Positions 11,268-11,744 of a stretch of DNA of 35,774 bases are shown one piece after another. The stretch lies in the IMG/VR virus record IMGVR_UViG_2534681674_000025. One strand, written 5' to 3'. Source of the DNA: a virus. Its lineage: Duplodnaviria > Heunggongvirae > Uroviricota > Caudoviricetes. Under the pieces are notes generated by a model, which was given only the letters and a program-made list of their open reading frames with translations, searched no databases and was not told where the DNA came from. Both the position numbers and the translations under genes were made by a program. Positions within the stretch are counted from its first letter, which is position 1. Each line of letters starts with the position of its first letter.

Positions 11268-11294
11268 AAAGCGCCTCAGGGGCGCTTTTTGTTT
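11268..11294 (+). terminator. Rho-independent terminator after the hotspot genes
   Basis: AGCGCC-TCAGG-GGCGCT hairpin followed by TTTTTGTTT. Confidence 0.6.
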
Positions 11295-11320
11295 GCACAA
11301 AAGTGCACAAATTTGCACAA
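11294..11320. repeat. Three TGCACAA direct repeats at exact 10-bp phasing, separated by A/T tracts (fourth copy at 11386-11392)
   Basis: TGCACAA at 11294, 11304 and 11314, read directly from the sequence; helical-period spacing suggests a protein-binding array or bent DNA. Confidence 0.5.
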
Positions 11321-11744
11321 TTTTTTTGAACGACTTTTTACCCTTCCGGCCCGCATGGCGGCTGGATCCGTCAAGGATCCGTGCGTGCACAAAAAAACGC
11401 GCTTTTTCTGCGCGCAGGTGACGGGGGAACAGCCCGCGTTTCAGGGGGTAAATAGCATCCCCTGAACGATGTCGCAGCGACACAACAGAATGGCTGTATT
11501 TCTCACGCTGAGCGTGAAAAAGACGTGAGGGCTTTTGATTTGATGAGGTGAAAGGTAAGGCCGTCAAAATCGCACTGAGACGGCGAGAACATGCAATCAA
11601 CGCGGTGGGATTGCGTAAGAGCCTGACCGTCGATGATGGCAATAAGCTGGAAGGCGTCGTGAAATTATCTGATTGATACAGGAGCTGGAGAGTCGGGGCA
11701 TAAATTTTTTATGCCCCGGCGAAGCAGCAGACAAGCGAAGCGCG
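11321..11744. other. Non-coding region between hotspot and portal; expected location of cos (not pinpointed)
   Basis: In P2-type genomes cos lies between the old/tin region and the distal end of portal gene Q; hairpins at 11396-11415 and 11440-11464 and a stem-loop at 11694-11718; no sequence I can confidently match to a known cos. Confidence 0.3.

Follow-up and report, generated by a model that had tools for sequence, protein, structure and literature searches.

The cosB segment of the phage lambda packaging site carries three short elements, R3, R2 and R1, which are bound by the small terminase subunit gpNu1 through a winged helix on that subunit, together with the integration host factor (IHF) site I1, and a fourth element, R4, lies across cosN. 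Phages of the P2 type differ from lambda in that they package DNA from monomeric circles. The cos site of P2, 186 and P4 comprises a 19-nt cosN and a conserved core of 55 bp, as the work of Ziermann and Calendar (1990) is relayed in later papers (PMC5694545, PMC3931495, PMC9594776), and P2 cosmids are transduced more than 1000-fold better when they carry the flanks beyond this core, the responsible element having been left unidentified by the authors (PMC9594776). Here we report an analysis of IMG/VR virus record IMGVR_UViG_2534681674_000025, a stretch of 35,774 nucleotides (the window), in which four copies of the word TGCACAA lie in the non-coding gap beside the portal gene. Sequence comparison indicates that these words are probably the recognition array of the cos packaging site of a P88-like prophage of the P2 family, and they are best read as the P88-lineage version of the P2-family cos recognition arm, a cosB-like element.

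The four copies, all on the + strand and in one orientation, occupy positions 11294-11300, 11304-11310, 11314-11320 and 11386-11392, the first three within TTTGCACAAAAGTGCACAAATTTGCACAATTTTTTTG (11291-11327). An earlier note, made from the letters of the window, had described three TGCACAA copies at exact 10-bp spacing with A/T tracts between them and a fourth copy at 11386, all of which can be seen in the sequence. Across the whole window the word occurs 8 times against 8.9 expected, an overall count at chance level; the clustering lies beyond chance, as four copies in 99 bp have a Poisson probability of ~1e-8 for a given 99-bp stretch and of ~4e-6 after correction for the number of stretches, and 200 first-order Markov simulations of the window contained no 7-mer, 6-mer or 5-mer triple with a 10/11-bp period. 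The surrounding non-coding gap, from 11234 to 11744 between the cargo hotspot and the portal gene, measures 511 bp rather than the 450 bp first given for it. As the earlier note also had it, the gap contains several hairpins (Table 1) and no open reading frame (ORF) with support, and Rfam has no family there, the only hit being a chance-level match to SprD (17.7 bits against a gathering score of 100).

The location of the gap is that of a P2-family cos site. On the P2 map the cohesive-end site is flanked by the variable region, which follows gene A on its right, and by the 3′ end of the portal gene Q, and the variable region adjoining cos is a published hotspot of P2-like phages (PMC9122126). 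The gap likewise extends from the variable gpA-gpQ hotspot to the 3′ end of the portal gene, and since P2 cos sits between the variable region and Q, the parMR pair, the IS3 element and the small ORFs of the window can be taken as hotspot cargo and the gap as the position of cos. A search of the window for the P2 cosN 19-mer, GGCGAGGCGGGGAAAGCAC, was empty at up to three mismatches, so the cosN of the window is a diverged one that was placed by its context and by intermediates. The candidate, GGTGACGGGGGAACAGCCC, is identical to P2 cosN at 13 of 19 positions and is a G+C-rich 19-mer, as in other P2-family cos sites. With commas set at the borders of cosN, P2 reads TGCATTAAAACCGCCCCGTGAAGCGGGC, GGCGAGGCGGGGAAAGCAC, TGCGCGC and the window reads TGCACAAAAAAACGCGCTTTTTCTGCGCGCA, GGTGACGGGGGAACAGCCC, GCG; common to both are the word with its A-run, a short GC inverted repeat and a 19-mer of the GGYGnnGGGGG type. 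To the left of cosN the window has TGCACAAAAAAA at -31 and CGCGC-N7-GCGCG, compared with TGCATTAAAA at -29 and CCGCCC-N6-GGGCGG in P2 (all such positions are counted from the first base of cosN, and the ends of P2, 186 and P4 are annotated or mapped experimentally). The viral contig L019 bridges the two, with TGCACAA words followed by GCGCGCA, GGCGAGGCGGGGGAGCAAG and CGCGCGC, and published ends of the same type are those of phiRSA1 (GGTGAGGCGGGG...), Smp131 (GGCGTGGCGGGG...) and AP3 (GGTGGGGCGGGG...). From these comparisons we infer a cosN at 11417-11435, with nick positions uncertain by ~2 nt. The suggestion that the array lies in the region that should contain cos is therefore supported by the comparative evidence, both by the position between hotspot and portal gene and by the cosN-like 19-mer.

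Two other placements were rejected, one at 11339, where the phage record LR595891 starts, and one at GGATCC...GTGCAC (11362-11390), which loosely resembles GGGGAAAGCAC. Both fall in a block whose homologue in P4 and 186 is the GGCGCGG dyad, found there at -70 to -45. The ends of loci were not accepted as physical DNA ends, since they are the ends of stored chunks and not of contigs, nor were contigs truncated near the portal gene, which, on our reading of the IMG identifiers, come from isolate genome assemblies, one of them ending in IS1. In IMGVR_UViG_2681813261_000011 (L407, 2372-2424) the right end of IS1 abuts CAGGTGACGG, 2 nt to the left of the predicted start of cosN and at the equivalent of window position 11414/11415, and the contig ends inside IS1; this junction may be a chance insertion into cos, or it may be related to the cut site.

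The arrangement of three distal words and one proximal word is shared with the P2-family phages whose ends are known. Copies of TGCAT lie at -123, -111, -101 and -29 in P2 and at -124, -111, -101 and -29 in both P4 and 186, while TGCACAA is found at -123, -113, -103 and -31 in the window and at -121, -111, -101 and -29 in L019. Beyond these further word copies at about -123, -111 and -101, the window resembles the cos sites of P2, 186 and P4 in its position between hotspot and portal gene, its G+C-rich 19-mer of the GGYGnnGGGGG type, the GC inverted repeat to the left of cosN, the word with A-run at about -30 and the GC-rich dyad, and the sequences are homologous, with intermediates such as L019. 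It differs from them in the word itself (TGCACAA rather than TGCAT), in the spacing of the distal words (10/10 bp rather than 12-13/10 bp), in having A/T tracts that predict curvature as spacers, in 6 of the 19 positions of cosN, and in a terminase that is only 36-44% identical to theirs. P2 and P4 are identical over ~55 bp, a stretch that opens exactly with the proximal word and closes with TGCGCGC, and we take it to be the classical 55-bp core of the literature. Because P2/P4 identity begins at the proximal word, the fourth TGCACAA copy would mark where the classical core begins on its left; none of the three phased distal words falls within the shared ~55 bp, and a model in which terminase binds the array fits the more than 1000-fold effect of the flanks on P2 cosmids (PMC9594776).

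The same plan was found well beyond the close relatives of the window. Using the large terminase subunit as the query we assembled 80 prophage loci from many genera and compared their left arms wherever a cosN-like 19-mer was found downstream of the portal gene. Each clade has its own word, and the distal and proximal copies change together: TGCAT with proximal TGCATTAAAA in P2/186-type enterobacterial prophages, TGCACAA with TGCACAAAAAA in Escherichia, Erwinia and Enterobacter (P88 and Novemvirus types), (T/C)GCATAA with TGCATAAAAA in Burkholderia and Halomonas, GCATCA with GCATCAAAA in Pedomonas, TGCGTCA with TGCGTTAAAAG in Collimonas, CCGTCA with CCGTCGAAAG in Comamonas and GCGGAA with GCAGAAAAA in Halopseudomonas. 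Distal copies lie at about -110 and -100 and often also near -122, and the proximal copy lies between -28 and -34. The joint change was quantified by counting proximal-region 5-mers that recur in the distal region of the same arm, summed over 34 non-redundant arms; the sum was 77, against 13 for an equally long control from the middle region, and when proximal and distal regions were paired by permutation the mean was 48 and the maximum 65, with none of 2000 permutations reaching 77. Among 41 non-redundant TGCAT-type arms (less than 90% mutual identity) the words are the only distal columns conserved at 90% or more, and the dyad block between distal and proximal words is partly conserved (gcca..c.Ggcgcgg).

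Every TGCACAA-type relative carries the array, so that the repeats, which the earlier note had proposed looking for in related prophages, are conserved. In the alignment of 30 distinct related loci of this type, homology starts at the first word and the sequence to its left is unrelated cargo. So sharp a border between phages, set exactly at the first word, could also be expected if the array were the recombination boundary of the cargo hotspot, a site at which cassette exchange is initiated or resolved and which has no part in packaging, and the hotspot beside cos is indeed known for rapid gene exchange that has been proposed to be stimulated by cohesive ends (PMC9122126). We consider this very improbable: selection on an essential cos element would leave an equally sharp boundary, distal and proximal words change together, which points to a single protein, tied to cosN, that reads both, and P4-like satellites, whose hotspot lies on the other side of cosN, still keep the words.

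These satellites, which are packaged by the terminase of their helper (PMC9122126), provide the strongest argument, from sequence comparison, that the words serve packaging. They were collected through the Psu protein, giving 80 Psu-bearing loci that represent ~65 distinct satellites. All ~65 keep three distal TGCAT words and the proximal word, even those in which Psu is only 62-64% identical and the spacer between words and core has diverged. Satellite sequences become unrelated straight after cosN and TGCGCGC, their hotspot being on that side. What helper and satellite have in common is therefore the span from about -125 to +26, made up of the left arm and its words, cosN and these seven bases. 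No P4-like satellite of the TGCACAA type was present among the 80 Psu-bearing loci, all of which are of the TGCAT type.

The satellites also bear on the suggestion that the array is an operator or promoter element, acting on hotspot cargo genes or on a transcript that runs through cos. The old-tin transcript of P2 begins 28-30 bp to the left of the first TGCAT word, on the opposite strand, in keeping with such a role. In contrast, satellites keep the words beside an unrelated gene, psu, and the fixed distance is the one to cosN; the neighbouring cargo and its orientation differ between phages while the array is constant, and a promoter scan of the window gave no promoter-like site at the TGCACAA repeats. 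A role of this kind is therefore given little credence. In this part of P2 (33424-33478; L006 1425-1479) the mapped old-tin starts lie so close to the first word that the old promoter overlaps or abuts the distal cos words.

A further question is whether the words are read by a phage protein at all. They, or the curved A/T tracts, might be the target of a host architectural protein such as IHF, Fis or H-NS, or the DNA might assist cos purely by being bent, with no phage protein reading its sequence. Strong predicted curvature and phased A-tracts speak for this in the lineage of the window, as follows from the inter-word A/T tracts together with the T-rich spacer that follows the distal words: the 10-11-bp A-tract periodicity at the array ranks 10th among 35,714 sixty-bp windows, and a wedge model predicts a bend of 64 degrees over 42 bp, ranking 81st among 35,732. 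The use of IHF at lambda cosB is a precedent. The equivalent arrays of P2 and 186, however, are not predicted to be curved, so that the conserved feature is the words and their positions; curvature as a conserved feature was accordingly rejected, and bending looks like a lineage-specific aid. The intrinsic bending expected in the earlier note is thus predicted here too for this lineage, though not for the P2 and 186 equivalents. A host factor is also an unlikely reader of the words because they differ between phages of one host, E. coli phages using either TGCAT or TGCACAA, and they co-vary with phage clade across very different hosts; moreover, the A-tracts sit in the spacers, whereas it is the words that are conserved, and the IHF consensus WATCAANNNNTTR has no match anywhere in the window. 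Taken jointly, a host architectural protein or bent DNA as such is improbable, and the host-factor array offered as one candidate in the earlier note is disfavoured on the same grounds.

The other candidate raised there was a centromere-like site for the nearby ParR. ParR of plasmid R1 binds the 11-bp iterons of parC, which lie upstream of parM, and phased direct repeats are typical of parC. Similarly, the window has helically phased short direct repeats near a parMR operon, with ParM and a StbB/ParR-family protein encoded ~2 kb upstream of the array, and ParR could be imagined to coat the repeats while ParM filaments segregate the element. The array does not, however, lie beside the parM promoter, and it neither co-occurs nor varies with ParMR or ParR. 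In at least eight loci with sufficient left flank the array is identical and the stretch that separates it from the replication gene encodes no ParM/ParR; where parR is present it lies anywhere from ~1 to 4 kb from the array, whereas the distance of the array to the portal gene and to cosN is fixed; the repeats are identical whether ParR is 99% or ~50% identical to that of the window; and the same layout is present in P2, 186, P4 and distant clades that lack ParMR. The co-occurrence and ParR-allele tests contradict a centromere, which we regard as extremely improbable. The plasmid-type ParM/ParR (StbA/StbB) partition pair at 7927-9205 thus forms part of the cargo in the P2 hotspot of an integrated prophage, and otherwise near-identical phages carry two ParR alleles that are only ~50% identical alongside ParM proteins that are 96-100% identical.

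With these alternatives weighed, a terminase recognition array associated with cos, which the earlier note had also listed, is the reading supported by the comparative evidence, namely fixed geometry, co-variation of the words and their retention in satellites. The gpP homologue of the window is 44% and the gpM homologue 36% identical to the P2 protein, and the changed word fits this divergence. The N-terminus of the large subunit is a helix-turn-helix (HTH) domain (PF06056, HTH_23, residues ~6-63), the only HTH in the terminase, whose putative recognition helix reads TIYAWKKRD in the TGCACAA class, TVQSWKQRD in the TGCAT class, TIASWKQRD in the TGCGTCA class and TVHEWKKAD in the CCGTCA class. 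L019 has a P2-type cosN, yet its words are TGCACAA and its helix is that of the TGCACAA class. The AlphaFold model of gpM (pLDDT, the predicted local distance difference test, 82) has a TPR-like helical repeat and a disordered basic C-terminal tail, and sequence searches of the PDB with gpM and with the gpP N-terminus returned no informative relatives. We lean, by little more than an even chance, towards the N-terminal HTH of the large subunit as the putative reader of the words with gpM as an organising scaffold; gpM is the other candidate reader, if it is not a scaffold.

With terminase as the presumed binding protein, a mechanism can be outlined. Terminase (gpP and gpM) would bind the three distal words ~100-125 bp to the left of the cleavage site, the 10-bp phase placing three protomers on one face of the helix, and a fourth protomer would occupy the word beside cosN, ~30 bp to the left of the cleavage site. 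Between the two lies an interval of 72 bp (11314 to 11386) with the GC-rich dyad and A/T tracts, which would probably permit bending or looping of the DNA and so bring distal and proximal protomers together in one complex. This complex would position the nuclease on the predicted cosN at 11417-11435, where cleavage to 19-nt cohesive ends would initiate packaging. The binding protein, the looping and the exact nick positions are all putative. The arrangement would resemble lambda cosB in that several copies of a short element, one of them set apart, lie beside the nicking site and presumably anchor terminase, with DNA bending thought to bring the copies together. It differs in that there is no sequence relation, no IHF site was found in the window, the array and the terminase genes lie on opposite sides of cosN, and the array's likely reader may be a large-subunit HTH rather than a small-subunit winged helix. 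The likeness is an analogy of working principle and not membership of the same system.

Several observations weigh against this interpretation. The 55-bp core is the part of cos that is conserved between P2 and P4, and cosmids with a short cos are still packaged at low efficiency, so the distal words may enhance packaging without being essential to it; nor are three distal words universal, since several clades show only two clear ones. For the P88-like lineage cosN is placed by homology only, the search for a P88-like record with mapped ends having found none, and LR595891 (P88_4B11; L002/L003) begins between the array and the dyad, 78 bp left of the cosN predicted here. Phylogeny confounds the association of HTH helix with word class; in the alignments both the gpP HTH and gpM vary with clade, and the gpM model has no HTH or recognisable DNA-binding fold. 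Finally, the portal gene of the window carries a stop codon, so the cos site of this particular copy may be out of use. LR595891 is a linear record that begins and ends at the equivalent of 11338/11339 and is the only linear phage record to break in the gap region. Since the block there matches an internal dyad of P4 and 186, we regard its start as probably arbitrary.

Among the papers accessible in full text, none was found to describe the distal words or a family-wide plan of three words plus one, and a 2026 survey of P2-like viruses does not mention cos. DNA recognition by P2-family terminases is poorly characterised, and the comparative pattern offers a concrete and testable model of the recognition site, predicting packaging-specificity classes with TGCAT in P2, 186 and P4 and TGCACAA in P88-like and Novemvirus-like phages. 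It is possible, though we hold it only tentatively and as doubtful, that the P2 family as a whole recognises its packaging site through such words, two or three of them phased at about -123, -111 and -101 and one at about -29, read by the large-subunit HTH and not by the small subunit, the word acting as a lineage-specific packaging code. If so, the range of helpers open to a P4-like satellite would be set by this code, and cosmid delivery systems based on P2/P4 could be given a different one. On a practical level, the pattern is relevant to the compatibility of helpers with satellites, to cos annotation in prophages and to designing transducing particles from P2/P4. A 151-bp module was found in 1,099 of 5,426 complete E. 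coli genomes, with no annotation in any of the records listed, placing the TGCACAA class in ~20% of complete E. coli genomes; a 901-bp query reaching from the end of IS3 across the 87-aa gene and the gap into the portal-gene end was covered to at least 80% in only 116 genomes. For the window itself the significance is modest, the array being an expected cos accessory element of an ordinary and possibly defective prophage.

Table 1. Features of the non-coding gap and of the neighbouring genes in the window
Feature	Position	Strand	Remarks
Replication endonuclease	5028-7850		
ParM	7927-8886		
StbB/ParR-family protein	8891-9205		
IS3-family element	9703-10915		Inserted in hotspot cargo
Putative rho-independent terminator of upstream cargo gene (87-aa ORF, 10970-11233)	11268-11288	+	Terminator-like hairpin; right border of the variable hotspot, with homology between related phages beginning a few bases further right
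Distal array, three TGCACAA words at exact 10-bp spacing	11294-11320	+	-123, -113 and -103 from predicted cosN
T-rich spacer TTTTTTTGAACGACTTTTTACCCTT	11321-11345	+	TTTTTTTGA kept in the TGCACAA lineage
GC-rich dyad block: CCGGCCCGCATGGCGGCTGG, then two copies of GGATCCGT 11 bp apart (11364, 11375)	11346-11383	+	
Proximal word TGCACAA with A-run, TGCACAAAAAAA	11386-11397	+	-31 from predicted cosN; counterpart of TGCATTAAAA
Short GC inverted repeat CGCGC-N7-GCGCG (11398-11414), directly left of cosN	11398-11416	+	Counterpart of P2 CCGCCC-N6-GGGCGG
Predicted cosN, 19-nt cohesive-end sequence GGTGACGGGGGAACAGCCC	11417-11435	+	Placed by homology
Right-arm hairpin TTCAGGGG-N11-CCCCTGAA (hairpin 11440-11466)	11436-11470	+	Close relatives only; z = -3.7
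Putative terminator of portal/terminase operon	11694-11718	-	Counterpart of P2 tQ; z = -5.9
Portal gene, gpQ homologue	11745-12791	-	In-frame stop at codon 135
Terminase large subunit, gpP homologue	12791-14542	-	PF06056, HTH_23, Terminase_6N, Terminase_6C
Terminase small subunit, gpM homologue	16655-17455	+	PF05944

Within the gap, the dyad block corresponds by homology to one in P4, 186 and Novemvirus-type phages, which reads ...GGCGCGG(T)CTGAG. Its right part, between the distal and proximal words (11364-11382), holds GGATCCGT twice, 11 bp apart, as GGATCCGTCAAGGATCCGTG; this doubling is kept in P88-type phages, and Novemvirus-type phages have GGTCTGA...GGATCGG in its place.

Its sequence identifies the window as an E. 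coli prophage of the P88-like type (Xuanwuvirus, P2 family). It is 99.86% identical to the prophage beside yecA in E. coli OkiPb01713, and among phages it is closest to P88, P88_4B11 and further Xuanwuvirus members, which belong to the Peduoviridae (the P2 family). The gene order runs from the integrase through the switch and early genes to the replication endonuclease, ParM, ParR, a hypothetical gene, IS3, the 87-aa ORF, the gap and the portal gene (- strand), and then to the large terminase subunit (- strand), scaffold, capsid and gpM. The stop in the portal gene is at 12387 (AK*MRRG), where the near-identical RefSeq sequence NZ_AP042682.1 has Tyr (T vs G, + strand); if real, it would leave the prophage unable to make virions. 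A second hint of prophage decay is a virion morphogenesis gene at ~21875-22510, which has an internal stop and is a pseudogene in the RefSeq annotation. Between the window and NZ_AP042682.1, 27 of 33 mismatches and the sole 1-bp gap lie inside the IS3 element, a concentration from which it follows that the two carry different copies or variants of IS3. Between the lysis and tail genes, where P2 has no such large gene, lies a gene for a 626-aa DUF6645 protein (19511-21391), possibly another cargo insertion.

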